Shown: in pieces, positions 1 through 62,188 of the stretch | How positions within the stretch are numbered: position 1 is the first letter of the stretch | Layout of the letters: each line of letters opens with the position of its first letter | Assembly: GCA_965649765.1 (NCBI GenBank) | Contig: OZ287749.1 | Span: 51,522,001 to 51,586,000 of the forward strand | Source of the DNA: Bispira polyomma | Lineage: Eukaryota | Direction: 5' to 3' | Length of the DNA stretch: 64,000 nucleotides | The notes under the pieces: model-generated | The model's database searches: none | What the model was told of the DNA's origin: nothing | Seen by the model: only the letters and a program-made list of their open reading frames with translations | Translations under genes and position numbers: made by a program

Positions 1-111
1 TGTTTGGGTTAGTCTGTTAGTGAAGGTATAGGAAGCCATGGGTTTTTCAGGCAAATTACCTACTTATTATATTCAATATACTTCTAGTTTCTGTGGCCAA
101 TCGACAGAGCT

Positions 112-370
112 GTCTGTGGCCCAGCGTTTAGAATGTCTAACTTTGGATTTGAGGGTCTAGGTTAGAGCCTCGCTGTAGGCCAGGGCCTGAATTCACAAAG
201 AGACTTAGTGAAGTCTTGGGTTTAAATCAGTATACTTTTGTGTTAGATTTAAGCCTAAGACTTGGCTAAGTCCCTTTATGAATATTGGCCCTGGAGATTG
301 TACCATTGGACAAGGTACTTCACACAAAGTTGGCCCTCTTCACCCAGGTCTATACATGGGTATCTGGCTG
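112..370 (+). mobile_element. Degenerate tRNA-derived SINE (CORE-like) interrupted by a MITE
   Basis: Decayed A-box-like head TGTGGCCCAGCGTTTAG; after the MITE, CORE-like TTGGACAAGGTACTT...CACCCAGGTCTATACATGGGTA. Confidence 0.45.
181..293. mobile_element. Palindromic Harbinger/Tourist-like MITE
   Basis: CAGGGCCTGAATTCACAAAGAGACTTAG...CTAAGTCCCTTTATGAATATTGGCCCTG, inverted over almost its full length; related ends at 17100-17283, 18819-19039, 26564-26768, 59548-59620. Confidence 0.65.
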
Positions 371-728
371 CTAATGTAATAATAATAGAAGCATTTTTAA
401 AGCTCAAAATTGATAGTCGGTGTCAGTTTGTGTGCCGCATGTGGCAGCATGGCTAGTATTCTCCCTTAGGGAACTGAGAGTGAACAATTGGTTGACATTT
501 GGAAGAACCCAGGCTGTAAACTGCATCAATTTTTTTTTCCATTTATGGGTGTGACACATTGCCAATAGTTTATAGCAGTAACAGGCAAATAGATTTATGT
601 TTATGTTACAACATGTTTTTGATTCCTTGCCAAAAAAAGTGAGGTATCACATGCTAAAGGATTTTAAAGTAGTATTTATAGTATTTTATAACATTTAAAG
701 ATTCATTCCAGATTAAACTTTGTGACAG

Positions 729-3700
729 ATGTCAGAAGCTGGAGAAGTTGAAAACGGCTAGCAAGGAGTTGCGTCCAATTGTCACAGAGGAGCCCTGGCA
801 GGTTTGCTGTCCAAAATTTATTCTTACTTATTTTTGACATTAAGGTTTATTGATCTTTCAATATTTTCACTATATTTATTTAATAATAAGTTAGTATGTT
901 TTATTAGCCAGCAGTTATGCTACTTGTATAGCTGGACAAAATATCCATAGTTTTATCCATGGACAAAGTCAGGGATACAGTAGTTTAATCTCATTGCGCC
1001 GATGGGCAAGGACAGGAAGCCTATGCATTTTTTACCTTGAGCTTCCATTTCAAGGTCAATGATAACCATTTTGCCATTTGTAGGTTTTTTGCGCACATTT
1101 TGGCCCTATTCTCCCATATGATAGTTGGATGTTCTTATGAATAATATTTTGAATACATATAAATGTCCTTTATAAATTGACAGAAATTTGACCTTGAAGC
1201 TCTTCTTTAAAGGTCAGCCATGGAATCATCCATAGAGTGTTACTTTAAGTCTAAAAGTAATTTATGGTAGACATTTAAAAAAAATTCCAATGATGATTTC
1301 CTAAGAATATTTTTCGTATCCCAAACTTGTAGGACTGAGTGAGATTTCATGCAAATTCAGGTGTTATTTGTACACCGAAAAGTCACATTTGGAACCATAA
1401 GGAGGGCTATGAACTAACCATGATATAAATGTTCAAGGTAAGTGGCCAGCAATCCAATGTGAGTTAGTCATTCACAGTTAATCTGAATGACCTTCAACAA
1501 TCCAGGTTTAAGTCGTTTAACCATTCACATTATGCAAAATATCTTATAATTTATAAGTACTAATCATAAATCATTTGTGGTTTTTCTTGAAGATCATTGG
1601 AATTGATCTCACAGGGCCACTCTCCGAAACAGAAGACGGCAACAAACACATTTTCACAGCAACAGACCTTTTTAGCAAGTTTGTCTGGGCAACGCCCGTA
1701 AAGACAAAAACTGCTCAGGAGGTATCCATGGTAATTGAGGACCTCCTGTGTACTTTTGGCCCTCCAAAGAAGATCATAACTGATAATGGAAAAGAATTTG
1801 TTAACAAGGTATTTTATGCCACACCTATTAATGGCAGTTGGGATTCTCTTAGTCCTTTGTGAATGATGCAATGGATATTCTTGTTAGTGTTAGTAGGTAG
1901 GTGGTATCACTGGAATTTTTGCAAAGAAACATCTAAATTGTTTTTTTTTAAACAAAACAATCTCAGTGGTCAGCATACCTGCAAGCCAATGTGATTTACT
2001 TCTCCACAGCTAATCTGAGTGGCCTAATCTGAATGCTGTTATTATTATAGTTAGCTACAAACACATTTTCTCTTCCCTCCCAATACTGTAAGTGTCTAAG
2101 CTTTAAGATGATGTAACACTCTCTATGGTGGTTTAATTTATATTACAAATTAATGTAACAATACAGAGCTATTTCAGATTAGTGAAGACATGCACAAAAA
2201 AATGGGGTGTTAAGCACTCAGTGATTGCGCCTTACTTTCCAGAAGGAAATGGGCAAGATGAACGAACAAATGGGAATATAAAGACGATTCTCACCAAGTA
2301 TGTCAATGAGTAAGTGGATTTTGTCAATGAGCAAAGTGATTTGATAAAGCAAGACAGTGGTGGAAATAGGATCTCAAAGTTTTAATTGGTCAATCGAAAC
2401 ATTTTTAAACCGATTAATTAAATCGATTCAGTTTCTCTGAAAAATGCATTTTCCAGCGAATTATTCCATTGTCATGTACAAGTAAGGATATGGTACAAGT
2501 TATTGTAGTTGTACAAATCATGACATGTACGATCCTTTTATTTAGGAATGCTTATTTAATTAATCTCATTTTTAACAGATAATTTAAAATATTAATTATA
2601 TTTTTTTTTATGAAATTGACTTGTTTCCTGTGGCACTTTTTGATGGAAGTGTTATGTTAACAGTTTTATTTTAAAAAGAGAGGCATTATACTATTAGAAC
2701 AAATTAGGTCCCTTTATAATGTATTTTAGATTTAAAACTGTCTTATATCTAATAAAAACAATCTTATTACAGCCATCAAACAGATTGGGACAAATATGTC
2801 AAGAGGGTCGTCTATGGAATTAATACGTCATACCAAGAAACCATCAAGAGGACTCGTTTCTCGGTGTGCCATATATTTCTATAATTAATTGAGATTTTTA
2901 CTGGTGATATCAAAAGCATCCACTTACGCACTAATGTGCAATGAGAGGGATTTGTTCCTATCTTGTTTCAATTGTTGGGATGGGTAGTTACGCGGACAAT
3001 TAGTGAAAAGTTAAAGTTATAAAGTGTTTGTTGTGGTTGTTGCAAGCACCACAATAATTTCTCAGCTAACTGCACTGAAAATTAATTTTATGGTTATAGT
3101 GGAGTATAAATTTATAATTTAGATTAGCCCTTAATCATTTAGTTGAAGTTTAAAATGTGAACAGAAATTATTTATCTTTTTCAATGAAAGCTTACTTTTA
3201 GTTTTACATTGGGACATATGTTTAAAAACAAACATTAAATATATAAGGTATTGAACTTAAAATAAAAGCTTTAGCTGTATATATATATATATTTATATAA
3301 TTTTAATATTGTTTATAAATTTTTAGTGTTTTACTTCTTTTAGGTAATGTTCCAAAGGGATATTTTACCGCCGATGTATATGAACATCTTAAATGATATA
3401 GAGTTTCAGGAAACAATTCAGAATCTGGAAGAGGTATACTTTCAGTTTATGATCATAGTGGAAGATCTCTATAATAATATGCAATGGTGTTTAACAGTTA
3501 CGGGCGTCATAGCACATTGTATTTGGTATTTGTGAAAAGCTAGGGCTCTAGAAACAACTATTCTGATGATAATTTTTTCTCACTTCAGGTTTTATATTAA
3601 TTTTGTGGACCATTTAAAAATTTGGACCCTTTACTGCACCCAGTGTTGTTGTAGTGAACTACCGTTATTCTAAAATCTATTATTTTATTAAATTCTATCT

Positions 3701-6700
3701 TTTAAAAGTAGGTCATACCTATGTGTTGTGGTATGGTTGCAAATATATGTTTTTGGTTTTTTTTATTTCAGTTCAGGTAATGTTTTTCCAGTCACTCCAT
3801 GCCACATAAAATTGATACTGTTATGCCGCCATTTCCCTTTTCCACTTCTACTACAATGGCACGTTACAGCAATGTCATAAAGACGTGGATTTTGCAGCTA
3901 CATCACAGCTTACGTCAGCAAATACCAGTTCCCATATAAGATATTAAACTTCAAGTCCACAAAATCAAAAAATAATATCAATATCTTAGCTATTTTGATG
4001 CAACATATTTTTTGTGAGAGTCAATATCTCCCTAACACAAAAGACTAGTTAACAATATTGTAATTTGACTGTAAAGATAAAGATTATTCTACAAGTATAA
4101 ATTGTATATTTGGACATTTCAGCAGGAGGAAAACTGCACACAGATGTTCACTAATGGTCCAGCCAACAGAGAAGTGAGTCACAATGTAGACATTTGATTA
4201 CTAATGGGAAAACTATTGTAAAGTATGAGCAGGGAATCTTTTGATGTGTTCAGATTTGATCTTGGGCCTCTCCTTCAAGGTCAAACAGGGATGGCCAAAC
4301 TTAAAACTGCCTATATCTCACTTATTAGTGGTCTTACAGGTTTGGGGTGTCAAACCAGCCTGTTATAATATCTTGGGCTGGTAATCTTTTGCTGTGGTCA
4401 GATTTAACCTTTGATCCCTCTTGCAAGGTCAAACGGGTAGGTAAAACTTGAAACTGCCTATCTCACACTTATTATTGGTCCCAAGGTGAACCCAATTGTG
4501 CCATCTAAGGCTTTAGCATAAATGCCCTATAGGAAATCATAGGCTTCTAGCTTGGGTGCTAGCTAGGGTGCTTGCTATCTAGGGTGCTTTGTCTTTCTGG
4601 TGGATACTAATATGCATTGGTTCTCCGATGCGCTAGGTCTAGTTATAGTTTGGAATAGATTAGGAGAGTAGAATAAACTCTGGTTTAGGAGTATATAATA
4701 AGCTGGTGTGTACAGACTTCCCCTGTTGGGGGGGGGGGGGGGGGAATATTGTATAAAAATGTTACCATTTATAACTGACAAATGTATTACAATTTCAGAA
4801 TCAATTGCAGGATCACACCTATAGCAAGGGCTCTGAAATTTCGACAGATAACCAGCCCAAAAATGATACGGTGGACCCTTTGTACAAGGAGGTGAATAAG
4901 AGGCAATTTTAAAACAGTTTATCCCCAGTTTAATTCATTAGTATCACTAAAATATGGTAAAAACTTTCATAGTTTTCATAATTGTAAATAAATAATTTTC
5001 ATTATTGTAAAAAAATAGTTAATTTTCACAATTTAAAATAAATAGAAATATTTCACTATTTGAGGTTACTGAGAGCTCTTTGTGGCCTAACATTCGTCAT
5101 AAAAAATCAGAAATCACTGCCATCATCGTGGCAGTCGTTTAAATTACTGCAATTCTCGGAGGTGGGCGAACACAAAGTAATTAACTTGCCCTGTTTTAAC
5201 TGCTATTATAGGTACGGGAATGTATAGCTAAAGCACAGCTAAAGCAGAAGTCAACCTATGATCGAAATTCTGCAAGCAACTGTGCTGTGTTTGACTTCGA
5301 AATGGGACAAGAAGTTCTTAAAAGAAATTTAAAAAAAATAGGAAGAAAAGGTAAAAATGTAAATATATGAATAAAAGATATCTATAAGTGTTAAAAATAC
5401 ATTTAATATTTATTGAGCCTGAACTCATCCCCTTTCACTAGATTTACTTTCTAATGATTTTTGTGAGGATGGCTTTCTCCATGGGTAGTTCAACAATCTG
5501 TTCTATCCTCGGTCAATTACAACATTCAGTATATGTTAGATACAGGTTAAATAAACTTCTTTTTCCTTCTCAAACTAAATTTCTGACTTTGCTTTCTACT
5601 AGTGGGTAAATCATTTATCGATATCAGCAATATTTATTGTTTGGGCTTTTGGTTGCCGATATTGATGTATCTATAATACCAACACATTGATATCATAAAT
5701 GACACATATTTCACCATGGAATAACATTTTTACAATAATACCTTTTAAACAATGCATAAGAAACATTTTATGTCCATTTTTATTTGTTTATTGCTTATCG
5801 ATATATATTTGAAGTTTGCCCAATCATATTCCTGTAAAATATGTGAAAATACAACCTTCATTGTTGTTAGGGTTATATAAAATGCATTTACAAAAATATA
5901 GTTTCTATTTATATACAGCTGCCGCAGATTTTGAGTAGTGGGCGTTGACCGCTACCTAGTGACTGGGTCACTATTGCAGTAACTTGCTTTATCGCAGATT
6001 TGAGGAATTTGTATTGTTGCCCACTGAAGACGGGCCCTATAGCGACCGTGTTGTCAGTATTGGTTGACTCGCAAATTTCGGGATATTGTAGGCGCATGCG
6101 CAGTCTTTACAAATGGAGTCGCCAGATTCTCATCTTGTTCTTAAATATTATTTGAAATATTGTTGTGAACGAAATTATAATAGATTTTGAAAACAATTAC
6201 TTATATCTATGAAGTTTGTCGACTAATATGCAGTAAAATATTCTTTATTATTAGGATTCTAGGAAATGGCATTTGCAAATTTAGTGTTTAAGGTAATATA
6301 TTATACAGCTGTAAGCGAAATGTCATTTTACCACACTGTAACTACGCTTTGGGTACTTGTATCAGATACTGCTAGCTATCAATTTGGCCCCCTGGTGACT
6401 GTGACTGTAACTAGCAACTGTACACTGTTTTCGTTTTTGATTTAAAGTAGACGAACGATATTTCTATTTTTTACTAATAAAAATTGCCATTTTAGATATT
6501 TAAAAAAAATTGTTTAGGATGCTCCTGGATACCCCATGCATTGCCTATACTTGCATATCTAGAAAGGCAGTGTGATTTTCATGCATATCCATATACATGC
6601 AATCGAAGATATCGTGACTGACTGCTTCTTTATCAGACATTTTGCCCATGAGTTGTATGTGCATTTTGATAGAAAGCTCTGATATGCGGCCACTGAGGCG

Positions 6701-9477
6701 CTTTTTTTTATTTCTTTAATTTAGGTGGCAAATTAGAATTTGACTGGTTGGGACCCAATGTCATTGGTGACATATTAAAGAATGGCCATGGTGGCAAAAA
6801 ATGGGGTGCCACTGAAATCCAAAGTAAACTCAAAACATCTAAAACCATACAGAAGGTATAACACATCATGTTTTACACCTTATTAGCAGTAAAAAATAAT
6901 TATTGTACCACAGGGTGTCTCAAAGATGTTAAAAGGTAACATCAGATTATTAGTATTTTTTGTAACGTTATTGCTGTGAGTGTATATATCTAAATCATAA
7001 AGAAGTTGGTTTATATAAGTAAATAGAAACTACAATACACCTGTATATTGTCACAGATTTTGTCCTGACAAGATAGTGCAGTAATAGTTCTCATTCTTCC
7101 AAAGAGCACAGTAACATTAATGGTTTGTTGCATATAACAGTATTAAAGTAATTAACAATTGATGGGATGCTGTGATTGTTCTAAGTGACTTTACCTAAAA
7201 TGGATTTGATCTAGAAAAGAATCTGAAGTAGAAGTAGAAGTCACAAAAATTGAAATGCCGCCCCACAGAAAATCGCCCAAGCCTTGTGCTGTGCCAAAGG
7301 GGACTACTGGACATGAGCACTTTTTGATACCATTGCTAATGGTAAAATATATATTTAAGCAATGATTCATACAATTTTTCAGAAAAAATATTAATTTTCA
7401 TCATGACTGCCAACAATACCCTCCTCATTGAAAAAATGTTCATTTATACACTGGTGTCTTACTTTACTCTATTGCATATGACCTTTGAAGAGTATACAGT
7501 ATTAATTTTGCCCATAATTGATTGAACCATCAATGATTCTAGAAAATTTTTTAAATTAAGCTATGTTATAGTTTTATGTATTGGATGTTTCGCTGTACAT
7601 GTATTTCTTTTATCAAATTGATATGTTCTATTAAATCTTTCGGTTTGAGTTTTCCCCAACCATTTTTTTTACTTATCAAAGTAATTGTTACTGTGAGGTT
7701 TTCTGCGAAGCCTTATATGATCTATATTTTATGATAAGGCAATAACTTTTCCAGGTAGGTACTTCATGGTAAGTCACGCAAAATATTAGATTGGCCACCA
7801 ATTAGCTGGCCAGTCAAACAAATTTAGTCAGCATTGTTGCTACCAAAGATTCTCAAGTATATTAAATACAATTTCGCTACCAGCAACTCCACAAATGATT
7901 ACAGACCTCATTCAATTGTTTTAATTGTTAACAATGTTTTAATTCTTGATGGAATATATATTTTGTCGAACCACCACACATTTGTTTTGATAAGAATTTT
8001 TTCTGGGAATATATTTCAGTTGCCATGAAGTACAAGCCTGTTTTGCAGATAATAGGAGATTCTTCTGTACTTTCCCCTTTATAGGTGAATGGCTGCAAGA
8101 TGTACACATTGACTTTGCCCTGACACTGTTATCAAAACAGTTCCCAGAGATGGAAATGCAGCCAACTACGGTAGTGGCCGCTGGATCATCGGGGCTTTAG
8201 TTGGCACTCCCGAGGGACCCTTTGTCCAACCTATTTTGATCAGCCGCAATCACTGGGTGTGCCTGGCCAACAATGGTGCATCCGGAGTAAAATTATATGA
8301 TTCACTTACTCCATCTGCTGTGGGTAAGAGTTATCTTGAGTCTTTAAGTAAATAATAGCTAATGGTTAAAATATGTTCCATACAGTGAATCTGTGACATT
8401 AGTCTAAAAATTTGGTCCTGGCATTACATGAAAATTTATGAAGTAGAACGAAAGATTGAAGGCCCGTGTGCCTTACAAACTGGCCTATACTATTCTTTTA
8501 TTTTGTCAAAATTCTTGCACATTATCGATTTTGTTGCACTAGGCGGAGCTTAGCTGATCAGCTTCATTTTAAAGTTTTATTGCCATGGGTCTGCATCTGT
8601 GTCAAAATCTTCTTCGAAAGTACAAGTGCTACAGAATTCCTGATTTTGCACTGGTCAGATTTGACCTGATTTTGGAATTATAAAGGTAAATTTCCAGTAT
8701 TTTGTGTCACATGTCAAGAAGTATTACTTGTATGTAATGCCATTCAACTGGCTTGGGTATTTCTTTATCGCCCAATAATCTTAGTGCTAATGCTTTAGGT
8801 CAAACTTGGTTCATAAAGGTTATCAATGAGAAGGAAGCTGCCAATATGCCCGTTCAGGTATTCAGATCTTGTTTTTAGTTTGGAGTATTTTTATTTGATC
8901 AAGTTAAACCTTAAGGTTAGTATATGTACTAACAAGAAGATAAGTAAAATTACACATTTCATTTTCCTCCCTTACAAACTTGACTTATAGTGTTATAGTA
9001 TTTGTATATGTCTAGTATGCGACTGCTTTTGCACTTTTAGATGATGACCTGAAACAGATGATTTCATGGTTGGTCTTGGCTAAGCCGCCAAAGATTACCA
9101 TCGAGTGGCCAGCCATGATGAGACAAAGAGGAGGCAATGACTGTGGCCTCTTTTGCATTGCAGTGGCAACAAGTCTGTGCTTTGGAGAAAATCCTTCTTC
9201 CAAAGAATATCACCAGCAGGCATTGAGGCCCCACCTGATTGACTGTTTCCTTAAGAAGGTGATGGCGCCCTTTCCATCAAGTCAAAAATCAATAGTTCCC
9301 ACCAAACCAAGCATGGAGGTTTCATTTCACGTCTATTGTGTTTGCAGACAGCCACTTCTACCAAATGTGATTATGATAACTTGTGAATTGTGTGGTGAAA
9401 AGTATCACCCCGAGTGCATGTCTGTTCCTCCTGTGGAGGGCTACATATGTGCGTTTTGCAGTCCTTACCCTCTCTAG
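729..9477 (+). pseudogene. Ginger-like (Gypsy-integrase-related) transposase with C-terminal Ulp1/C48 protease and PHD finger; 5' part lies outside the window; frameshifted
   Basis: Hand-spliced GT-AG exons: 729-801 (CQKLEKLK..LRPI..EPWQ), 1593-1808 (IGIDLTGP..IITDNGKEF), 2178-2309 (APYFPEGNGQDERTN; D-35-E spacing after removing one A from the A7 run at 2196-2202), 2773-2863 (DWDKY..GINTS), 3344-3433 (VMFQR), 4123-4173, 4799-4891, 5212-5350 (KAQLKQKSTYD..FEMGQEVL..RKG), 6725-6855 (GKLEFDWLGPN..VNSKHLKPY; frameshift), 7215-7341 (frameshift), 8085-8323 (WLQDVHID..QFP..NHWVCL..LYDSL; frameshift), 9041-9477 (QRGGNDCGLF; PHD YCVC..CELC..YHPEC..CAFC). No gag, RT, RNaseH or LTR seen. Confidence 0.85.
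4226..4642 (+). mobile_element. 5'-truncated Helentron-type non-autonomous element (HINE) in a transposase intron
   Basis: Reverse-complement match to the 62390-62940 element; subTIR GGTGGATAC (4599-4607), hairpin GCATTGG-ttct-CCGATGC, terminal CTAG followed by TT. Confidence 0.75.
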
Positions 9478-12011
9478 TTCTCTTTCTGTTTTTACCCCAC
9501 AGCCTATAAAGGCCACTTCAAGATATGTCACAGCTAACTAGCTAGAGATTCCTGAACGTTTTGCGGTCACTGCACACTTGAATTGAATTATTATTGGTCC
9601 TAGAGAGGTTTTTTATGTGAAATCCACTTGTAGGACAGTGTGGGCTGGTAACGGGTCATATTTGACCGTTCACCTGACCTTTTACCTCGTCATCTTAAAA
9701 AGAAAATGGCCGCTGTTGATGTTATTGTGAAAAATATTTCTGCTAATTTAAAGGAAAAGCATTGCAGTTATCTGCAGCAAATTTAATTGTTATACTTGAA
9801 TGTTACTGTTAAAGTTTTTTTCCATTGAATGAAAATTATAGTGAATTAAGTGAGTTCTTTTATCTGAAAAAGTAATATTATGCCTGTGCATGTATCTAAA
9901 TTAACCTCCTTTAGGATATTCCAGTTGTGGTTAGTCCTATTGATTGGAAAATAAAATTGGTTGTGGGCTTTTACATGAAAGTTAGTTTAGCAGTGTTTCA
10001 CCTTGATTTAATTTTACTGTTGTTAACACGGTTACTGTACATATGACAGGCAATGTATATTTATAAGTATTTTTAATAAGTAAGCTGCTTATGTCCAAAA
10101 GATGGGTTAATATACTTTGGTTTACAAAATACCATTTTGTAGATTTGTACAGGTTTTTGTTAAATCTTGGTTTGTATCTGTTATGATTTTGATGTATAAA
10201 AATATATTTTTTGAAACTGACTATTTTTTTTATTGTAAAAAGTTATTTTTATTCTAAACACTTGTCCTTTATTATCTTTTGTAATCAATATATATTTAAA
10301 TTGTGGTTATTGTTTGCACATGTAAAAATGTAGTGCCTAGTAATTATCAACACAAACTTTGGGGCCAGTATATTTGATCTTGATACCATTATCCCAATGT
10401 ATGACTGGCCTGATCCAATTCTAAAATAAGTAGATTCACATCTATTTTCTGTTCAGTCCAAGATTTGAAAATTATTTCAGATTTCTACAATAATAGAACA
10501 CTCTTAAAAATACTTTTACTGTTTTCACCACAAATTCCACACAAATCAGAATTTGATATTTTTAATTTGTGCATATATTAAGTTCTTGGTTCCATTTTGA
10601 CTGGTTGTTTCTATTGTACGTTCCAGATTGACATAATTTAAGATATACATTTTGTCACCTTTTGTGAAACTGATTATTATTGATTTGTGGAATGGAATAT
10701 ATGTCATAACCACATTCCAATTCACCCCTTTTTGTTACCATTTACATATAAAGTAATGAGTTGTTTTACTGTTTTGTAATTCAGAAAGTTAATGTTTAAC
10801 TTATTATTAAGTTTTTGAATCTTCTAAACTTATTATTTTACCATTTCAATCTAAAATATTCCCTATTGTGTTAATGCCTTTATAGACAAATTTGAAGTAT
10901 AAAGTTTGTTGCTGGAGATGTTTTGTTAAAGCAGATAAATATACAGATGTTTTTCTTGACTGTACATGTTCTATAGATTGATAGTTTAGTGGTTGGTTTT
11001 TAAATCCAAAAAGGCGATATAAATTTGGTTAACATGTGTTTGTAAATAAGCATCCTTTATACTTGCATCATTGCAGTTTTCCAAAGTGATTAAAACTAAA
11101 ATCTTCGGGGTTTTTAATCTACTATAATGGGGTGGGTCTTCTTTTTTTTAATTATTAAGCATAACAGTAATGTTATGTCTGTTTATGTAAATACATGAGG
11201 TTCAAGCTTTATTATATTATTATGCTGTTTATTGTTTAACCTATCTCTGTAAATAAATACCATTTCACTCTCTGTACCATTTAAGTAATCTATTGAAATT
11301 GTACCATTTCATTAACTTATGGAAATAGTTTAAATATTATTTCAATATTTGCCTTAATATAACCAAAAAAGTGATTTGCAACTCATTGTTGTCAATATTT
11401 TGATTGTAATTTTTTGTGTGATTTGCTTATTAGAAATAATATTATAATACCACCTTGTATAATACATTTAAGGTTTTGCATTATATGTAGTGGTGGCAGT
11501 GGCTTTTTTCTAGTTGTTTATCAATATAGCCACATTGAATTATTATTTTTTTAATGCAATACATACTCATGTTTCCTGCCATTAATGGATAATAAAAATG
11601 AATATATGTACAGTCTTTACTTTTTAATTATATTCAGTGGTAAGGCTTAAGCCTATCCAAATGAGGTATGACTTATGACAACAGAAATTTCATATTGCTA
11701 TGTACCTGACTAAATCTTGGCATTTGGTGGATACTTAGTACTATTGTTGACACTTTACTAACTTCTTGGTAGAACTTGTCACAGTTAATATATTGTTAGT
11801 GAGCTACGAAAACCCCCCATAAAACTACATAATAGCCTCTTAAAATACTGCAATGCAAATAATAGCCAAATTGCACACATGTAATTATGTGTCAGCCATT
11901 TTACTGATTTCCAGTTTTGCGGTTAGGTATAGAGGGTAACAATATCTTGTTTGTTACTCTCCTTCCCTATAATAAATGAAAGAATTATCAGCCTTGACTG
12001 TGATAGCAAAG

Positions 12012-14742
12012 TAGGGCTAGATATGACTGAGATATTAAGTAATTCTTTGTGTGGTCTCTAGAACAAGCCAATTTTAATGAATTTCTAGCTAGGCTTATGG
12101 GGAAGTACACAATATCTTACTTAAAAACCCTCATACTTATAGATGTTCACAACTATCGCAAAATATGATGCATTAGCTTTTCAAATAATAATGTACCAGC
12201 CAGATAGGCCTAGATATGACTGAGACATCAAGTAATTCTGTATGTGTTTTTTCTAGAACAGACAATGTTTACTGAATTCAGAGCTAGGCCTATGGGGTGG
12301 TACACAATTATATCTGACTTAAAAACCCTCATATTTATAGACGTTCACAACTATCGCAAAATATGATGCATAAGCTTTTCAAATAATAATGTACTAGCTA
12401 GATAGGGCTAGATATGACTTGAGACATCAAACAATTCTGTATATGTACTCTCTGGAACAGACGATTCTTACTAAATTCAGAGCTAGGCCTATGGGGTGGT
12501 ACACAATTATATCTGACTTAAAAACCCTCATATTTATAGATGTTAAGAAGTATCGCAAACTATGATGGATTAGCTTTAAAATGGCAATGTACCAGCCAGA
12601 TAGGCCTAGATATGACTGAGACATCAAGTAATTCTGTATGTGTTTTTTCTAGAACAGACAATTTTTACTGAATTCAGAGCTAGGCCTATGGGGTGGTACA
12701 CAATTATATCTGACTTAAAAACCCTCATATTTATAGATGTTCACAACTATCGCAAAATATGATGCATAAGCTTTTCAAATAATAATGTACTAGCTAGATA
12801 GGGCTAGATATGACTGAGACATCAAATAATTCTGTATATGTGCTCTTTCTAGAACAGACGATTTTTACTGAATTCAGAGCTAGGCCTATGGGGTGGTACA
12901 CAATTATATCTGACTTAAAAACCCTCATATTTATAGATGTTAAGAAGTATTGCAAACTATGATGGATTAGCTTTAAAATGGCAATGTACCAGCCAGATAG
13001 GCCTAGATATGACTGAGACATCAAGTAATTCTGTATATGTGTTCTTTCTAGAACAGACAATTTTTACTGAATTTAGAGCTAGGCCTATGGGGTGGTACAC
13101 AATTATATCTGACTTAAAAACCCTCATATTTATAGATGTTAAGAAGTATTGCAAACTATGATGCATTAGCTTTAAAATGGCAATGTACCCGCCAGATAGG
13201 CCTAGATATGACTGAGATATCAAGTAATTCTTTATGTGTGGTCTCTAGAACAAGCCATTTTTAATGAATTTTGAGCTAGGCCTATGGGGTGGTACACAAT
13301 TATATCTGACTTAAAAACCCTCATATTTATAGATGTTAAGAAGTATTGCAAACTATGATGGATTAGCTTTAAAATGGCAATGTACCAGCCAGATAGGCCT
13401 AGATATGACTGAGACATCAAGTAATTCTGTATATGTGTTCTTTCTAGAACAGACAATTTTTACTGAATTTAGAGCTAGGCCTATGGGGTGGTACACAATT
13501 ATATCTGACTTAAAAACCCTCATATTTATAGATGTTAAGAAGTATTGCAAACTATGATGCATTAGCTTTAAAATGGCAATGTACCCGCCAGATAGGCCTA
13601 GATATGACTGAGATATCAAGTAATTCTTTATGTGTGGTCTCTAGAACAAGCCATTTTTAATGAATTTTGAGCTAGGCCTATGGGGTGGTACACAATTATA
13701 TCTGACTTAAAAACCCTCATATTTATAGATGTTAAGAAGTATTGCAAACTATGATGGATTAGCTTTAAAATGGCAATGTACCAGCCAGATAGGCCTAGAT
13801 ATGACTGAGACATCAAGTAATTCTGTATATGTGTTCTTTCTAGAACAGACAATTTTTACTGAATTTAGAGCTAGGCCTATGGGGTGGTACACAATTATAT
13901 CTGACTTAAAAACCCTCATATTTATAGATGTTAAGAAGTATTGCAAACTATGATGCATTAGCTTTAAAATGGCAATGTACCCGCCAGATAGGCCTAGATA
14001 TGACTGAGATATCAAGTAATTCTTTATGTGTGGTCTCTAGAACAAGCCATTTTTAATGAATTTTGAGCTAGGCCTATGGGGTGGTACACAATATCTTACT
14101 TAAAAACCCTCATATTTATAGATGTTCACAACTATCGCAAAATATGATGCATTAGCTTTTCAAATAATAATGTACCAGCCAGATAGGACTAGATATGACT
14201 GAGACATCAAATATTTCTGTATATGTACTCTTTCTAGAACAATTTTTACTAAATTTAGAGCTAGCTAGGCCTATGGGGTGGTATACAATTATATCTGACC
14301 TAATAACCCTCATATTTCAATATGGTAAGAACTATCGCAAACTATGATGCATTAGCTTTAAAATTGAATTGAATTGGTATATTTAACATCCACTCTAGTA
14401 CCTGTTTAGGTTATATTGGGACGGGTAGTTGGAAACGCTGGAGGAAACACTGCATACAGTTGATCAAGGTTCTGCACTTAAACCAGCGTCCCACAGTAAG
14501 GAAATACCACCTTTCTCACATAGGCATCGACGGGATTCGAACTCACGCGGCCCAGAGGTGAAAGACCAGTGGGTGTGAAACGCAATGCTTGCTAACCACT
14601 AGGCCACCGCGGCCCCATCTTTAATATGATAATGTACCAGCCAGATAGGGCTAGATATGAATGAGACATCAAATAATTCTGTATATGTGCTCTTTCTAGA
14701 ACAGACGATTTTTACTGAATTGAGAGCTAGGCCTATGGGGTA
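12012..14742. repeat. ~198-bp satellite, ~12.5 monomers, with a 396-bp dimeric higher-order repeat
   Basis: Anchor TAGATATGACTGAGA recurs every ~198 bp; identical ORF translations recur at exactly 396-bp spacing (12937/13333/13729; 12957/13353/13749). Confidence 0.97.
14365..14616 (-). mobile_element. tRNA-derived SINE family A, full length, inserted in a satellite monomer
   Basis: Minus strand: GGGGCCGCGG-TGGCCTAGTGG (A box)...GTTCGAATCC (B box)...(TTCAA)n tail; diverged 11-bp TSD AGCTTTAAAAT/ATCTTTAATAT. Confidence 0.9.
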
Positions 14743-17623
14743 GTAAATATGTATCAAAAATAATAATCACAAATAATATTGTAATTATATCCTACTGGCA
14801 TTATTCCTGTAAAATGATAACAAAATAAAAGATATGCACATATTGCCAAATTGTCAGTGTCCTAGAAATCCACATTTCATTCTAGAAATTAAATTCTGTA
14901 CACCAGAAATGCTGTTGCGTTCCTAAATAAATTCATATAATCCTAAGTGCAAAGAGCACCAAATCATTAAGGTGTATTAAATTGAATTAATTATATCAAT
15001 GTTCCTTAAAAAATTAGTGTGCAAATATTCAAAGAAGGAATAGTATATTAAATGTGTAAATGTATAAAATAATCAATTTCAATGTTGAATCTTTAATATA
15101 TCTGGTATCTTATCAAAGTCGTCACGTGTGTGTGTGTAGTGTTTGTAAACACGGGTATTTTTCTGTTTTGCTTATTAAATTCCCTTTTAATTTTTTTTTT
15201 TTTTTTTTTTTTTTGCTTATCTAATTTCACACTACCAATTGCACCAATCATGTTTAATACCTTTTAAAGTGACTTACAAGACTAATAAAGGGGCAGGGTA
15301 TTTTTCCCATATGTTTTTTTTTATTGTAACCTCACTATAATTAAATAAATGAAATTAATCATCTCCAATAAAAACGTACATTTATGATTATACATGGAAC
15401 AAAATTATTGCTATTTTTAAAATTATTCTTGTTTCTCAATATGTTTAATATGATACCAATATTGAATCTGTATACGCAGCCGCATAGCTTTGGCCGTGCA
15501 TGCGCATTTAGGTACATTTAGAGGAAGTAAGAAAACAGTTACAACGAATCCATTTACGGGACACCGGGTCAAAATTTAAAAACGACGATAATCACGTTTA
15601 CATTAAAACAAAAATGACACAAACCTAGGTTTTCTAATCTGATTAAATAGGATTTTAAAATGTATAACAATTAAATATTTAAATTTATTTTATTCTTTTC
15701 GTCGATATAATAATAATATATCAGACTTGTTTACGTTTATTTTCGTTGTAACAAATTCTAAGGCACAAAAACACCACAGCCAGGGCTAAAAATCATTGGT
15801 GATAGACATAAGCAAGTAATTATCAATGTGTCCACCAGGAACAGGAAAGAGACTATGGAGGGAATGCAATATTGAACAGATAGGTCTTTAAACTGTGCCG
15901 GAAGCAATACAGGGATGGAGCTGTCCTAATGTGTTGAGGAAAACTATTCCATAGGGTAGGAGCATCATTTGCAAAATTCAGAACAACTGACCAGACATGC
16001 CAATGAATTCTGAATGCATTGCAAAAATGCTTAGGTCCTTTTTGGTCAAACTACAAACCAGTAAGTTGCAGTAGTCCAGTCAGCTACCAACCAGAGTATT
16101 TGCTGCAGTTATTGCATCCGATTTTGGAAGGTACCTCCTGATTCTCCTAAGGTCTCCTCACTTTATCAGTTGGGGATGACAGTATCCTAAGAATGTTTAC
16201 TGGAAAAGAATTTGACATTTAAGCACGTTGAATATAACAATACAATATATGCCCAAGTAAAGATTAAGAAAATGATAGACAATTTATTATAGGCAATACA
16301 ACAAATAGTACTTCAATACACTTTTGTTTCTTCCCTTATAATATTCATTAAAAGGCTACAGATAGTTGTATAAAGGGGGAAATGATCTGTTAAAGTTAAA
16401 ATTTTTGCCTTTAATATTTTGGCATTAGAGCTTGGTCTCACTAGTATGTTTAGCAGGAGCCTCATCTCAACCAGAATGTACATTTTTGTGGAGACAAACA
16501 CCAATGTGGCCTCAGTGCAGCTCCCTATCTAATGTGTTTGACCTTGAAGCAAACTAGCCAGAGCATAATTTGACCTTGTAACACAAGTATAGCTGCATTG
16601 AGGTATATTAGTTTATGCCATGTTAATCTAAAATATATGTGTACACACTCAAGATATATGTTTAAGGCCACCTTACCGAGTCGAGTCTTAACTTAGGTAA
16701 GATATTACAATACCATTAATTTAAAGGTTAACTTAAGTATGCCATTCAGTTACAACAAACGTAAACTAAGTAAATATATTAAGTTAAGATGGTTTTTACG
16801 GGAGCCTCATCTCTACTAGAACATACTTTTTGTGGATGCAAATCAATGTGACTTTATTACACACATCAATGTCCTTGTTTGCACATACTGTTGATCAGTA
16901 GAACAAACTGGACATTGAGCCAGTCACCAGTTTATCGTTTTTAGCTTTTTATCTCTAGGGATCCATCTTAACTGTCTCAGGTTGGTGTCAATGGGTGACC
17001 TTCATTAGGGATATCACCTTTTTCCTTAGAATTTGGACTTTTATACTTTAGTGGCATTAAAGAGATAACTTTTCGTCCACGAATTTTAAATTAGTTCACA
17101 CTTCAATGTCTTTGTTTACTGTTAGTCTTAGTGTTATAAGCAAAGTCAACACTAATCAGAAATTATTTCTTACTGTCCCCAGGACTAAAAGCAAAATGTT
17201 CACCTTTTTGGCCAAAAATTAAATACCAAAATCTTAAGCTTAAGTCTAAAGTTAAGACTAAGACCTTTTGTGAATATCGCCGCATGCTTCACATTTTTTG
17301 GCTTGTCTACCCTGACTGGTTTCTGTTGAACTGTTGTACACCCAGATAAAGGGTTCCAGTATTGCCAAGCCAATATATGACCATCAAAACATTTGGTTAA
17401 ATTTCAAATGAATATATGTTTCACTAGGCTTGCTTACAAGTCTTTGTATTTTATCCTTATCCACTATGCATGAAGTCATTATGATTTCACTATGTGAATT
17501 GGGCCAGTATCTCTGTGGAAATACAAGTTTTGTCAGAGCCAGTATCTATTTAAAAAGCCATACTAACCTCATATAATGCTTGAGACAAAAGAATTGGAAG
17601 AAAGTCTAGTGTTTCACAATAAT

Positions 17624-18818: not shown

Positions 18819-19039
18819 GGGCGGTATTCACAAAAGGGATTAACCATAAGCTCAACATTTATGTGTCAAATATTTAATACTGCCTGGTGTTAGTCTTAGT
18901 GTTCAGAGCAAAGTTAACACTAAGCAAAGATCTCTTCTTGCTGTCACTGGAACAAAGACCCAAATCTTGACCTTTATGGTCAAAATCAAAGACCCAAATC
19001 TTTAAGCTTAAGACTAAGTCCTTTTGTGAATGCGGCCCC
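18819..19039. mobile_element. Harbinger/Tourist-like MITE
   Basis: TIR GGGCGGTATTCACAAAAGGGA / TCCTTTTGTGAATGCGGCCCC; internal similarity to 17100-17283 and (inverted) 26564-26768. Confidence 0.7.
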
Positions 19040-19224
19040 TGGACTGAATCAGTGTGTATACCTTTTGTGAATGCGGCCCCTGGGCTGAATCAGCGTGTAT
19101 ACCTTTTGTGAATGCGGCCCCTGGGCTGAATCAGCGTTTATACTTTTTGTGAATGCGGCCCTAGTGCTGAATCAGTGTGTATACCTTTTGTGAATGCGGC
19201 CCCTGGGCTAAATCAGTGTTTATA
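19020..19224. repeat. 41-bp minisatellite x5 made of MITE right TIR plus flank
   Basis: Unit CCTTTTGTGAATGCGGCCCCTGGGCTGAATCAGYGTGTATA at 19020, 19061, 19102, 19143, 19184. Confidence 0.95.
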
Positions 19225-20256
19225 CCTCATTGTATATTGTGTATATCTTATCATAATGTTAAATATCATAAATATAAATAAAATACAATTATGTGAAAAA
19301 TATGACTTTATTGTTCTATGTATGGTAATATCACATCATCTGCGCTAAGTGAAACCAACCCACCAATAAAACATTAGTTAGGAAAATTAGTTCGAAAAAG
19401 CCTTAAAATTGGGTAAAATTAGACCATCGCCTTGCAAACCTACACCCCCTAAGGAATCTTTGTACCAAATATGAACTTCCTCATTCTGATCGTTTCTAAT
19501 AACTAGCCGTGATAATCTTTGGCAGTCACCACCTGCCCAGGTGCCCATCTGGACAACCTAGGTGAAAAATAACCCATGGCCTACTTATAGGCTGTGGCAT
19601 ATAAAAGGAAAATAAATGTAAAATATGAGGGAAATGTTGCCTAATTTAAATGTAACAGGATCTTATGAAGATATTTTAAATCAGCGAATACTTTGTAAGT
19701 TGAACTTTGTACTAAATCATTTTTAGCCATTTTCAAGAATGAGCTTTAATTGTAAAAATTTAATTTCTATGGCAAATTAAAACTTTTGCTAATCTCTTAA
19801 GTAAAAATTATTTCTCAGTGAAGTTAATTTCCAGTGGGTCTTTTGAACCTTTGCAAGGCTACTGTGGCTGTCGTGTACTCTTTTTGTTTAACACAGTAAA
19901 CATATATACAACCATCTTGTATTATCATACCCACACCAGGTTGTGATATTACCACTTGGTATATCTTATCAGCCACAACCCATGCACAGTACACATTACA
20001 ACAACCAACCAATAACCAACAGTTATCTTGACCTTTTTGAACAGGCCAAATATATACATGTGCTTTTCAAGGTGCCACAAACTATAATTCTGTTTTTTCA
20101 ACGTGAAAGGTGTGTTTACAATATTCACCCCAGTATAATTTTTGGCCTCTGCCACAATATTATAGTTCGTCAATATATAAAGGAAACAAACAGCTAATGA
20201 AACACAGCCAGTGTTAGACCAGTGCATATGTTTCTGCAATACAAACAAGTATCAAT

Positions 20257-23200
20257 ATGAAAGCTTTGGGAGTGGACTGGGTACCTTTGGCTGTACCTTT
20301 ACAAAGACGAATGCAAACTGCAGCCGTGATGTTCTACTGTTCCATCTTTTTTGTACTCCCCTTTTGTTCCTTTCTGGCTGTTATCGTCTGCTTATTTACA
20401 CCATTCTTCTTTGTGTCAATCCTTTATGTCCTCTGGATATATTTTGACGCCTGCATCAGGCACACTTCCAGCAAAGGTGGCAACAGATGGAACTGGTTCA
20501 GGGCTCACACTTTCTGGACATACTTCAGGGATTACTTCCCAGTGACCCTGGAGAAAACGTGTGAGCTGAATCCGGATAGAAATTATATCTTTGGATATCA
20601 CCCTCATGGAGTCCTGTCATTTGGAGCATTCTGTAACTTTTCCACTGAAGCGACAGGCTTTTCAAAGACATTTCCAGGGCTCAAATCCCACGTGCTTACT
20701 CTGAAAGACAACTTTAAATTGCCTGTGGCAAGGGATGTCATACTCTGGCTAGGTATGTATACAGTGTCTATGCCATTTTTTGGTTTTGAATGTTGCCTGG
20801 AATGTGTTTATACGACTTGTATGCTTTCTGGCGGAGCTGAGACTGAACAATTGGTTGACAAGTGGAAGAACCCAAATTGGGGTAATAGTGTCAAAGCGCA
20901 TTAGATAACAGTTTAACAGGTAACAGGTAATGTTTATACCTGCGCCATATCAAATTAATTATTATTATTATAATATTTTGGAGTTAAATGCTAAATTATA
21001 TGATAGTCTCATAGATTATTTTTGTTTGATGGTGACTTACATTTATCTATCCTTAATAAACAACCATGATTTGAATTAAATAATAAAATTTGTCATTGAA
21101 AAATGGGGTTTTCCATATTTTTGGTTATGACAATAATTGCACACTACATATTGTGGGCACAACATATATGCAATCCACAATTAGTGTCTGATTTTGTAAA
21201 TAGTTAACATTTATTTCATTTACTGCCAATACAATATATTAAGCCATTCATTACTTATCACTTTCTGCCAAAATAGGAATGTTTATGTTGAACCAACTTT
21301 TAGAGTGCCCTTAACCCATATTGCATAGTGTAAAAATACTGCAGGTCACACTCTGTTGTGCACTTTTACAGCAAACAGTGCATCAGTCGCAAAAAATTAA
21401 CTGTGATATTTGTAGTACTAGATACATGTATATGCCACTGTTATACTATTGTTATAAAATATACTAGAACGGGTCTTAGCAGAGTCAATACTGGTCCTCT
21501 GTAAAGGCCCACCACTGTGACAAAAAGTATTAAAAATGCCTGGATTTGCCCTTATACCTGGATGTCTTCCAAATATCAAGTCAAATGTTATAGATGTTTC
21601 CCTGTTGTAACTTTGCTCTGACCAGAGTAATAAGAACTCACATTTTGAGTGGCGTGTAACTTGTAGCTGGATTCTGATCCCAAATGACATATTAAAGAAC
21701 CTTTGGAATGTGGATAAATGGTCATCCTTGAGCATTCCTATCTAGAGTAATCAAATTGACTTTGAATTCCAGCAGGCACGAAGAAGGCACTGTGCTGAGT
21801 ATAAAAGAGTGTAAATTTGAAGATTAAAAGATTCTATATAAAAGTACATTTTTAGCATAAAATATACAACACAGAGGACATGGATTGGATCCGTGTCAGG
21901 AATTTCCAGGTGCAGACAGGTGACCACTTAAAGGGTTGGATCTGTGTCATTGGGTCCTATTCCACACTGGCTAAAGAACCTTCAGGACGTTGATAAATGG
22001 TCTTCCTAAATACACTCTCTTCAGTTAAGTTAGGGGATTGACAGTTACAGTTTACAGTTGCTGCTTGCCTTGTACATTCATTTTTAAATCCCACAAAGCA
22101 AGAAAATACTAATCTGAGTTAAATGAGTATCAATTTGAATACTAATATAAATTTACATTGATTTATTTTTTTCTAGGAGCCTGTGATGTCAGCAAAGAGA
22201 GCATTCAGTGGATTCTCACCAAACAAGGTAAAGGGAATGTTGTCACCATTGTGGTGGGTGGAGCTCAGGAATCCCTTGTGTCAAAACCTGGAGTTTACAT
22301 GGTCAATCTGAAGAACAGAAAGGGCTTTATAAAGCAAGCCATTCTGTCTGGGTAAGTCTACTGTAAACGATTGCAGTAATAACTATCCAGACTCATGGTA
22401 ATTTTACCATGATAGTACATATAGTTTAAAACTTTAAATCCTATTGGTTTATATAAAGCAAGCTATTCTGTCTGCGTAAGAGTGTTACATAAATATATTG
22501 CAGTAATAAAGACACAAACTTTCATAATCAATATACACCCTGCAAGAACAGTGAATCAAACTGGTTCCTTCCTGTGAGTTTTTTTTTTTTTTTTGAATTA
22601 TGATATTTAACGTCCACTCTAGTACCTGTTCAGGTTATATTGGGACGGTAGTTGGAAACGCTGGAGGAAACACTGCATACAGTTGATCAAGGTTTTGCAC
22701 TAAAACCAGCGGCCCACAGTAAGGAACTACCACCTTTCCCACATAGGCTTTGACGGGATTCGAACTCACGCCGCCCAGAGGTGAGAGACCAGTGATTGTG
22801 AAGCGCAATGCTTGCTAACCACTAGGCCACCGAGGCCCCTCCTTTCTGTGAGGAAAGATGATTTAGTATCTGGCTTAGATCTAATGGTTATAGTAGAAAT
22901 ACCTGGAACACATGGAGAAAGAAAAGCTAAAGCTGTTGCATAATCAATCTCGCAAATCTTAGTAACATTATCATTATCTGTAGTTTTGATAGAACACAAA
23001 ATTGATGTATTTTCCCTAAGTAAACATTCTAGCATTATCTGAAGTTCCACCAGGAACTTTCTGATTACCTCCTCAACTCCATGACCACTAGACCACATGG
23101 AAACGCAATCATACATATGATTTAATATTATGGAATGTGATCTAATCTAATGTAATATAATATGTATGATCTAATAGTTATATATTTACAGGGCATCTCT

Positions 23201-24062
23201 TGTTCCAGTCTTTTCCTTTGGAGAAAATGACTTATTCAATCAGCCAGAAAATCCCCCAGGCTCCAGATTAAGGATGTTTCAGGATAAATTCAAGAAGCTC
23301 TTTCATTTTGCACCAATTGTGTTTTATGGGAGGGGAATATTTAACTACAGTTTTGGATTTATGCCCTACAGACAGCCCATTTTCACAGTCGGTAGGTATA
23401 CAAGGACCATTAACATCATAAAAAAATGTAGTATTAAATGTAGTATCAACCTCAAACTTTAATTTAATGGTTTTGGGACAGTGGTATGCATCAAAAACCG
23501 AAAAAAATGCCATGCAGCGAGTTACATATGTTCCAACATCTCTTCTATTTTTTAAGGCTGTCAACAATATATTTGTACCAACACATAATGTAACTTATTT
23601 ATAACTACATTACAATTATAATATAATTTTTCACAATAAGTCCTTCTAAAATATGAAATTGGTGTTAATCTTTAAAGTTAAACTTGCCAACATGTAACTT
23701 AACTCCCATAGACAATAGTGAAGTCATGCCATTTTAATGCCATTTCGTATTTGCAGTACATGATAGTACAATGGACGTAGATATTACAGGAAACAGATCA
23801 ACTATTTACAAAAAATAATTAAGTAATATATTCACCACCTTTAGATATTTATTCATACATGTATATATTGTACATTAACAATAACATACAACATTCCATT
23901 TTGATAGTGGGCAGACCCATAGCTGTGAAGCAGTGTACTGAACCAGACCAGGACATCATTGATAAATACCACCAACTGTATGTGGAGGGACTCATTGATC
24001 TCTTTAACAACAATAAAACGAAGTATGGAGTACTTAAAGATGAAAACTTAACTATTGTGTGA
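20257..24062 (+). CDS. DGAT2/MOGAT family acylglycerol O-acyltransferase, copy 1 (4 exons, 341 aa)
   Basis: Exons 20257-20752, 22177-22351, 23192-23391, 23908-24062 splice in frame (1026 nt). Motifs: DYFP, FGYHPHG, F-x-TEAT-GF, VVGGAQE, RKGFIK, LVPVFSFGEND, VGRPI. Confidence 0.95.
22579..22839 (-). mobile_element. SINE family A, full length, poly(A)-tailed, in intron 2 of acyltransferase copy 1
   Basis: A and B boxes on the minus strand; T16 run; 13-bp TSD TCCTTCCTGTGAG (22566-22578) / TCCTTTCTGTGAG (22840-22852). Confidence 0.92.
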
Positions 24063-27671: not shown

Positions 27672-27998
27672 AATACCTTGTTATTGTCTGCATGTATATG
27701 TTACATATGGACTATTTAATAGTTTAATAGAGCTTGAGTGTTTGATCAACACATACTGGCCTGGATCGGACTGCTTCGGATTAAAATTACACCTGGTACC
27801 CTACTGTATAGAAAGAAATTGTCCAGTAAATACACGTCATTAAAAGAACCATAAAAGAAGTGGTTTGTAAGAACAGAAAACAGTTACAAAACAGTGTAGG
27901 ATAACTTTCCTCTAAAAGCATATACTACTTGGTACTAGACGTAAAACAGGGCCTTTTGATATTCTTGTGTTTTCAAGGCCCACCAGAAAATCAATACT

Positions 27999-57705: not shown

Positions 57706-58463
57706 TGTAGCCTATATGTATCCTGGAAATTGTGAAACAACCTCATACACCTAAAGAGATTGTTTATAGTCTTCAGGGTTACAACCATAAATATATATGT
57801 TTTCTCCCCCAAAATAGTGAGTTTTTAATCACTAAAGATGACTTTTAGATATACTTTGGGCTTAAATGTCACTTACAACAACCGTGTATGAAATTACAAT
57901 ATTCAATTTATTGGTGGAGGAAAGCAAAACATGGGTATAGTTGTATGGTCAAGATTTCTGAACTATAAACCAGCAAGTCTAGTGCCAACTTTCCAATATA
58001 CATAACATGGCTTTAGAGTTTAAACACACTACTGTAGAGTTAGAAGGCTACTGTAGATTAATTTTGGCTAAAATAAAGTTTCTTTAAAGTGAATCACGGT
58101 AGAACGTACCCTCTACTATAACATCTACTGTATTAATTGTCAATATTATAGACTCATAGTCACTCTGAATTTCTTACTTTCCGATTATGTTGTACTAAAT
58201 AACATAAGTAATAATTTTATTGTATGGACTTTTCGCATTATGTTGTACTAAATAAAATAAGTAATAATTTAGCTCCTCCAAGGTCTCCAGATAAACAGGG
58301 TTCCACTGTATTGCACCCATTTTACTTGAGTTTTACCATTCCATGTTTATAATGTGCTTAATAATACCTTTAATTTAAATTTTTTCTTTATTTCAGAATT
58401 TATTTTAACTGTTATTAATCAGTTCAAAAAGTTTAACTTTAATTCAAGATTTTAAACATAGGA

Positions 58464-58565
58464 CTCAAACTCCATATTTTTTAACTCAAACTCCATATTT
58501 TTTAACAAACTCCATATTTTTTAACTCAAACTCCATATTTTTTAACTCAAAACTCCATATTTTTG
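58464..58565. repeat. ~21-bp minisatellite x5
   Basis: CTCAAACTCCATATTTTTTAA units. Confidence 0.9.
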
Positions 58566-62089: not shown

Positions 62090-62188
62090 TTTATACACAT
62101 AAAACAAATACTGTTCTTTCAGTAGTGAAATAATTAAAACAAGCACGCATTCTGCAAATTGGAATGAGGGTAGAAAAACATAAATTAA

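Follow-up and report, generated by a model that had tools for sequence, protein, structure and literature searches.

Pairs of intron-rich Ginger1 elements bracketing a block of chromosomal DNA: probable composite DNA transposons in the genome of Bispira polyomma

Ginger1 elements were described as DNA transposons of 2.6-7 kb with 0-4 introns, termini of 40-270 bp (a range that describes 16 families) and proteins of 500-800 amino acids (PMC2836005). One of them, Ginger1-9_HM, already has the Ulp1 and PHD domains (Bao, Kapitonov, Jurka 2010, PMC2836005), and by 2022 Repbase listed 23 autonomous entries for Ginger1 (PMC10045372); these and other published systems are compared here as the available portions of the cited papers describe them. 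We analyzed a stretch of 64,000 nucleotides from Bispira polyomma (contig OZ287749.1, here C2, positions 51,522,001-51,586,000; "the window", whose own positions are used below unless a contig is named), the first quarter of which belongs to a Ginger1 element that we call G. Like Ginger1 and Ginger1-9_HM, G combines YPYY, HHCC, DD35E, GPY/F, Ulp1 and PHD in one protein and has 4-bp target sites of the type CCGG or CCGT/ACGG, TGT ends and GT-AG introns. It differs from the published elements in its size (21 kb, and 27 kb in a sister family, G2), its 13 introns and its 14-bp imperfect termini; the founding description, in its available portions, mentions neither composites nor cargo. The Ulp1-PHD fusion by itself is already known; what is new is a natural, amplified composite Ginger1 with a traceable donor. 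Two direct copies of G bracket about 37 kb of chromosomal DNA, and the resulting units were probably moved whole by a Ginger1 transposase acting on their outermost ends. Literature searches, with Repbase entries and supplements outside their scope, found neither a Ginger1 composite nor a Ginger1 with 13 introns.

Composite transposons of bacteria are vehicles for resistance genes. Those with directly repeated insertion sequence (IS) arms or of the IS26 pseudo-compound type (PMC9587614, PMC6431247) resemble these units in that complete elements flank a passenger, a target duplication lies outside, solo arms exist and tandem amplification occurs. The present units differ in residing in an animal genome, in their 21-kb arms with a spliced gene, in their size of 73-197 kb, in the non-autonomous state of the arms, and in that selection on the cargo is only suggested. 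KolobokP, known from molluscs and further animals (PMC9587614), likewise occurs in monomer, solo and multimer forms with target duplications, for which unequal crossover was proposed; however, its arms are non-coding repeats of 450-660 bp around a transposase and a nuclease, whereas in our units complete transposons form the arms and enclose chromosomal DNA whose donor can be traced. Pack-TIR, Pack-MULE and GingerRoot elements (PMC8277862, PMC6839031) also carry captured host sequence with introns, but the capture is within one element, and the GingerRoot fragments are described as 84-1,654 bp long and never whole genes; here 37-41 kb lies between two elements. Our units would depend on an integrase-type enzyme and were amplified naturally to 17 loci, or about 1.6 Mb. 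The Drosophila transposon TE, in contrast, was followed as single events in genetic stocks. The same applies to the maize Ac/Ds macrotransposons, which measure 10-28 kb (PMC9910405). Both these and the foldback-flanked TE of Ising, which spans hundreds of kb (PMC6431247), illustrate that two DNA elements can move the host DNA between them, using hAT or foldback ends, respectively.

The family G is about 21 kb long, starts with TGT and ends with ACA. Its left end, TGTCA, fits the TGTNR pattern, and its right end, read inward as TGTCC, differs at the fifth base; 12 of the 14 terminal bases match, and the termini of G2 extend over about 19 bp. Around 50 copies, with 93-100% amino acid identity, are found on 14 large contigs, where the exact end patterns occur 45 (left) and 48 (right) times compared with none for the controls. 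The 4-mers CCGT, CCGG or ACGG occupy 31 of 36 outer or solo flanks, and four of six solo copies have an exact 4-bp duplication. By motif, target site and terminus the predicted protein is a Ginger1 transposase, as the original prediction had proposed. The genome-wide search for intact copies that it called for did recover these copies with their termini and duplications, but none of the 15 examined was fully intact. The window copy measures 25.3 kb, as it carries a pogo-like insertion close to the left end and a long interspersed nuclear element (LINE) in intron 1. This APE-RT LINE, present in intron 1 of all six further G copies checked, missing from G2 and occurring alone elsewhere, is the only reverse transcriptase upstream of the window exons; the upstream reverse transcriptase, gag or long terminal repeat that had been named as the mark of a retrotransposon was otherwise not found. 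An identity as a gypsy retrotransposon was rejected, as only about 300 bp separate the left end from exon 1, the termini are inverted, 4-bp duplications are present and there is no long terminal repeat structure. A domesticated gene of the GIN1/GIN2/Imagin kind was rejected on the basis of the roughly 50 copies with termini and duplications, and a Helitron, Polinton or virus because no Rep/helicase, PolB or capsid-like open reading frame was seen among the frames of at least 100 amino acids in one unit (inspected by eye, 12 of them scanned with Pfam).

The G copy in the window forms the right arm of a G-cargo-G unit of 80.3 kb, which begins at C2:51,457,220. A second G, in the same orientation and preceded by CCGG, is located 55 kb upstream, and a single CCGG duplication bounds the whole unit. 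The observation that the window copy has ACGG on its left and CCGG on its right reveals that it was not inserted alone. The cargo, about 37 kb of chromosomal DNA, starts and ends at identical bases in every unit. G is accompanied by the cargo (its gene) at 17 loci, which together comprise 37 arms and about 1.56 Mb, and occurs alone at 20 loci. The arrays have two, three or four arms and reach 197 kb, and in all simple arrays the arms are in direct orientation. The outer 4-mers are identical in eight of the nine G-ended arrays in which both ends were read (CCAT/CCGT in the ninth), for which a chance rate of 0.28 gives P = 2.7e-4; the other eight of the 17 loci fall outside this count as they are G2-ended, rearranged, or have one end not found. 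When the flanks are rejoined, they align across the junction to uninterrupted repeats for the arrays on C14 (299 bp, 96%) and at C5:59.9 Mb (107 bp, 95-98%).

A G-free segment at C8:16,806,667-16,847,567 is colinear with the entire cargo at about 94-97% identity, and its CCGT and ACGG coincide precisely with the two cargo junctions. Two further, partial G-free paralogues on C11 and C2 indicate that a low-copy duplicated segment was the source of the captured DNA. In masked comparisons the cargo diverges between arrays by 0.90-0.98%, the arms by 0.72-1.07%, and the cargo from the donor by 1.8-2.5%. The equal divergence of cargo and arms indicates that the two spread together. Arms and cargo are closer within arrays than between them, and 53 private alleles near exon 11 are shared within arrays compared with five across arrays (the tree of this locus was used only for the majority clade, as the ends of five rows are misaligned). 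In the C3 triplet the left part of the middle arm agrees with arm 3 and the right part with arm 1, which would be the product expected from unequal crossover. The C14 arms are about 0% apart in the centre and 0.4-1.7% at the ends, and those of the window array are 0.98% apart, equal to the between-array level. No site among 17,159 positions in three arrays separates all left from all right arms. This pattern fits founder arms that were identical and later underwent patchy conversion.

The sister family G2 (26.8 kb, about eight copies) has approximately 51% identity to G. In its C7 copy all located exons are open, and all catalytic motifs and the PHD tryptophan are present; the linker exons were not located. 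At the junctions read, the intron positions of G2 are those of G, plus one more. A third intron-rich Ginger1 family, at C5:22.94 Mb (-) and C5:13.27 Mb (+), is 33-56% identical to G with matching exon boundaries. The intron positions common to all three families indicate that this lineage has long been rich in introns. Both G2 ends are also found on a family of 14-18 kb elements (44 exact matches per end) in which no Ginger coding match was found. About 110 bp from one end these elements have a CCGT hot spot that took G repeatedly, as well as another copy of the non-coding family. G2-ended units that carry G and cargo measure 51, 55 and 102 kb and are flanked by duplications of rarer types, AGGG, TCGG and CCGC, respectively. 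The AGGG and TCGG units, on C8 and C13, have one deletion junction in common and no second arm.

These observations can be arranged into a sequence of events. Two copies of G would have landed 41 kb apart and in the same orientation, at the CCGT and ACGG of either an allele of the C8 segment or a paralogue of it, probably through a local hop. The transposase would then have paired the outer left with the outer right end, and units of 73-84 kb would have inserted at new CCGG, CCGT or ACGG sites within the same burst that produced the solo copies. Because all composite arms examined have an 8-nt loss in exon 11 (see below), the enzyme was likely supplied in trans from a copy with an intact exon 11. 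Subsequent unequal crossing-over between the 21-kb arms could have generated the arrays with three and four arms (128-197 kb), partial homogenization and possibly some solo copies, and some units inside a non-coding G2-ended element may have moved again on those ends (51-102 kb).

Several points weigh against movement of whole units. Within the DNA compared, no junction-spanning repeat was found for five of the seven composites tried, the one in the window included, and for two C9 arrays the stretches examined yielded no outer left end. The arrays on C12 and at C13:21 Mb are rearranged. The data come from one assembly, C8 may be only a sister of the allele that served as donor, and among the 15 G copies examined there is no fully intact one that could be named as the source of the transposase. 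Furthermore, the target 4-mers are few, which makes each matching duplication individually weak, and matching outer duplications are also expected if cargo recombined into solo copies.

In this last alternative only solo copies of G transposed, and the cargo entered later through a G-cargo circle or ectopic gene conversion. It would account for the outer duplications equally well, it is in line with the private alleles and lesions that arms share within arrays, and re-entry of a circle of this kind was proposed for KolobokP (PMC9587614). However, it requires ectopic events of 35-60 kb at up to 17 loci, and the equal between-array divergence of cargo and arms, the window arms that differ as much as arms from different arrays, and the deletion junction common to the single-armed units on C8 and C13 all speak against it. 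We consider it unlikely. A different route would be a replicative cointegrate, as for IS26, in which a G-cargo circle transposes and G is copied at the insertion, so that two identical arms result with the cargo between them and a new target duplication on the outside. The direct orientation of the arms in all simple arrays and the lack of fixed differences between left and right arms agree with such a route; moreover, retroviral-type integrases are not known to cleave the second strand. In the founding description the way in which Ginger1 excises was given as not known (PMC2836005). Nevertheless, the patchy similarity of the C14 arms fits later conversion rather than identity at birth, and no circles were seen, which makes this route quite improbable; the cargo would still be mobilized by the transposase, so that it departs from movement of whole units only in the route taken.

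The observation that the gene has many introns and spans 21 kb like a host gene, that some neighbouring units are only 0-0.1% apart as false duplications would be, and that G-free paralogues of the cargo exist could also be taken to mean that the units are ordinary segmental duplications or assembly artefacts around a domesticated GIN-like gene. This is very hard to reconcile with precise TGT...ACA ends and 4-bp duplications at both solo copies and arrays, with some 50 dispersed copies that have private lesions and keep the catalytic DDE, and with units that are about 1% apart from each other and lie in different flanks; we regard it as highly improbable. Transposition of the composite units as wholes remains the reading we favor.

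The predicted transposase gene has 14 exons and 13 introns, and 12 of its coding exons lie in the window at 712-9477, separated by GT-AG introns of 320-1,374 nt (Table 1). The original prediction had described at least 12 exons here, with an intron inside the DD35E core; these exons were found, the intron sits between the second Asp and the Glu, and only the start moves, from 729 to 712. The view that introns are unusually numerous for a transposon is borne out by the comparison with the 0-4 introns of the founding paper. The two linker exons 8 and 9 both have lengths that are multiples of three. An exon candidate at 8799-8857 and an acceptor at 8020 were discarded because of phase and homology. 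Sequencing runs X1-X3 cover the introns and contain no splice joints, that is, they behave as DNA; their reads match most of the 1-nt differences of the window copy and show exon 11 without an indel.

The protein cannot be produced from the window copy. After splicing, the frame of this copy meets a stop after 20 amino acids, and it has four 1-nt shifts (exons 1, 5, 12 and 13) in addition to the family-wide 8-nt loss in exon 11. Exon 5 is one base longer than in most copies, in a run of A, which shifts the frame, and exons 12 and 13 are each one base short in the window copy and its partner arm. Across the family, exon 11 has 131 nt, with the out-of-frame 8-nt loss, in 44 of 50 copies, and 139 nt with an intact GPY in four (two were not called); a frame of the majority type would end around residue 454, ahead of Ulp1-PHD. 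GPY is also intact in G2, and reads GPN and is frameshifted in the window copy and in the 11 majority copies read. However, a natural copy at C9:46.36-46.38 Mb can be read for 722 codons across all 14 exons, and its only shift lies inside the PHD. This reveals that the Ulp1-PHD exons are part of the transposase gene rather than of a separate transcript, the refuting case named in the original prediction, and that the fusion is ancestral.

The architecture of the protein is YPYY-HHCC-DD35E-GPY/F-Ulp1-PHD. The YPYY (Y..FP...) and HHCC (H-x4-H...CxxC) motifs, encoded in exons 1-3, were identified by eye and are the same in G2. Within the integrase core of the spliced natural copy, 35 residues lie between Asp201, which is the second Asp, and Glu237. 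The His, Asp, Gln and Cys of the Ulp1 domain align with those of homologues, nine of the 20 homologues scanned reach the Peptidase_C48 cut-off, and the previously reported catalytic motifs (NHW, YDS, QRGGNDCG) and C4HC3 ligands are all present. The PHD match of exon 14 in Pfam (E = 3e-4) is under the family cut-off. A HMMER search with this exon gave 3,902 matches at E <= 0.001, and a word-based search against longer proteins gave none. Its AlphaFold model (pLDDT 92.5) resembles PHD fingers, including those of BPTF and PHF2, and the half-domain in the model has a weak match to Ulp1/SENP proteases (Z 3.0-3.4). The same Ulp1-PHD cassette is also found on SWIM-bearing and pogo-type proteins. Two residues before the zinc-binding His, G has Lys where 60 of 68 homologues, and G2, have Trp. 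We take this Trp to be part of the methyl-lysine aromatic cage of H3K4me3 readers such as BPTF, PHF2 and DIDO. G shares the PHD fold with these readers but lacks the residue, and for the reader function that had been ascribed to the window copy, fold and ligands stand, whereas the conserved Trp does not. Similarly, the chromatin-reading de-SUMOylase that had been proposed could not work in the window copy or in the other copies of the majority type, where the module is out of frame. With Ulp1-PHD out of frame in most copies and the PHD without its Trp, a fusion that counters silencing would belong to the ancestral state rather than to the present one. In the ancestor, the integrase would have been joined to a Ulp1-type protease and a PHD finger, and by analogy this enzyme would probably have stripped SUMO from repair factors or chromatin where the element left or entered the DNA.

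The cargo contains a DIRS-like retroelement, LINE fragments, an acidic open reading frame, an actin gene and a gene of 575 amino acids. In the three cargo copies read the actin gene is disrupted, and its donor version contains a stop. The 575-amino-acid protein is basic (rich in Lys and Arg), consists of 108-amino-acid repeats, reaches the cut-off of no Pfam family, has no Atlas match, and gives a low-confidence helical model (pLDDT 52). Its gene remains open in all 30 young copies, and the 28 G-associated copies, which are not independent inside one array, have 106 distinct substitutions, no stops and no frameshifts. The G exons have 15 frameshifts per 157 substitutions (Fisher P = 7e-4); some of the 1-nt shifts in G are possibly homopolymer errors, and with only frameshifts longer than 1 nt counted P is 0.045. 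Four mostly non-coding sets have 60 non-triplet indels per 364 substitutions; the DNA upstream of the gene is too repetitive to serve as a neutral control. The dN/dS values, 0.43 for the gene and 0.53 for the G exons, differ little, so that the case for constraint lies in the lack of frameshifts and stops. These comparisons suggest selection on the passenger. Four relatives elsewhere are 48-51% identical, and about 17 older paralogues with four to five repeats (among them those at C5:37.56, C9:30.91, C6:56.99 and C2:30.64 Mb) share a conserved stretch 2-7 kb upstream and the 3' flank at about 80%, in which they resemble a dispersed host gene family. We tentatively entertain the idea, doubtful as it still is, that selection on the passenger maintains this animal composite transposon as it does in bacteria, with a dead Ginger1 pair serving as the vehicle for dosage amplification of a host gene. 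If this were the case, then the genome would have gained about 28 extra copies of a lineage-specific host gene, with the number tuned further by unequal crossover between arms.

The units tie an integrase-type DNA transposon to mobile units of 50-100 kb that copied a defined chromosome block with its genes to 17 places. They show how large duplications can arise and gene families can grow in animals by a route that can be followed, since donor, junctions and later recombination are all readable. With them, Ginger1 reaches three times the size and the number of introns published so far, and the three families with common intron positions bear on how GIN-type host genes acquired introns. G, without the PHD Trp, and G2, with it, provide testable material for Ginger1 excision and for the role of a transposon-borne Ulp1-PHD.

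Table 1. Features of the G copy in the window and of related elements. Positions are those of the window, with negative values upstream of it, unless a contig is given.
Feature	Position (strand)	Content	Remarks
G, window copy	1..15563 (+)	Ginger1 element	extends upstream to C2:51,512,260 (window position -9741)
Exon 1	upstream of window	YPYY motif	~300 bp inside left end of element
Exon 2	-215 to -31	His pair of HHCC finger	upstream of window
Exon 3	712..801 (+)	CxxC half of HHCC zinc finger	boundaries identical in G2
Exon 4	1593..1808 (+)	integrase core; catalytic Asp 1605-07 and 1782-84	Pfam rve E = 5.4e-12
Exon 5	2178..2309 (+)	catalytic Glu 2260-62	
Exon 6	2773..2863 (+)	integrase core end	54% to G2
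Exon 7	3344..3433 (+)		
Exon 8	4123..4173 (+)	linker	least certain; only splice sites and frame
Exon 9	4799..4891 (+)	linker	less certain; splice sites and frame; partly within alignments of homologues P0045/P0049
Exon 10	5212..5350 (+)	helix leading to GPY/F region	
Exon 11	6725..6855 (+)	GPY/F region	131 nt, GPN, out of frame in window copy
Exon 12	7215..7341 (+)	linker and start of Ulp1 domain	
Exon 13	8085..8323 (+)	Ulp1 His (NHW 8248-56) and Asp (YDS 8296-304)	
Exon 14	9041..9477 (+)	Ulp1 Gln and Cys (QRGGNDCG 9124-47); C4HC3 PHD ~9334-9459	stop 9475-77
Tandem repeat array, ~198 bp	12012..14364	within 3' part of G	copy number variable
Right terminal inverted repeat	15550..15563 (-)	14 bp, ends ACA	12/14 match left end
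CCGG target-site duplication	15564..15567		matches 4-mer before left end of upstream arm, 80 kb off
G2 copies	C7:56,962,057-56,988,851; C11:14,819,685-14,845,443		26-27 kb
Non-coding G2-ended family, examples	C1:11,398,762-11,412,922; C2:28,287,318-28,303,281		

Among the arrays, those at C12:38.94-39.07 Mb and C13:21.00-21.11 Mb contain inverted segments of cargo and arm, which suggests alternative-end transposition or fold-back rearrangement. In two others (C2:44.809 Mb and C9:37.139 Mb) the outer right flanks begin with the same approximately 18 bases, which points either to insertion into one repeat family or to common descent. A pogo/Tigger-like element sits at a TA slightly inward of the left end of the G copy in the window; its open transposase frame of 623 amino acids (C2:51,512,923-51,514,791) includes HTH_psq, DDE_1 and a C-terminal PHD-like finger. 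An intron of G contains, at 4210-4646, a very high-copy interspersed repeat with subunits of about 147 bp that recurs inverted at 62186-63619.

The host DNA past the insertion includes two tandem intron-containing genes of the DGAT2/MOGAT acyltransferase type (20218-23462 and 27960-33862, both +; Pfam DAGAT). Farther along the window are a trypsin-like protease gene (42462-44958, +), a single-exon galactose-3-O-sulfotransferase reading frame of 492 amino acids (46649-48127, -) and at least two Kunitz-domain exons (54259-55538, -). Short tandem arrays are located at 18981-19268 (41 bp), 58445-58566 (about 21 bp) and 61448-62088 (about 71 bp).

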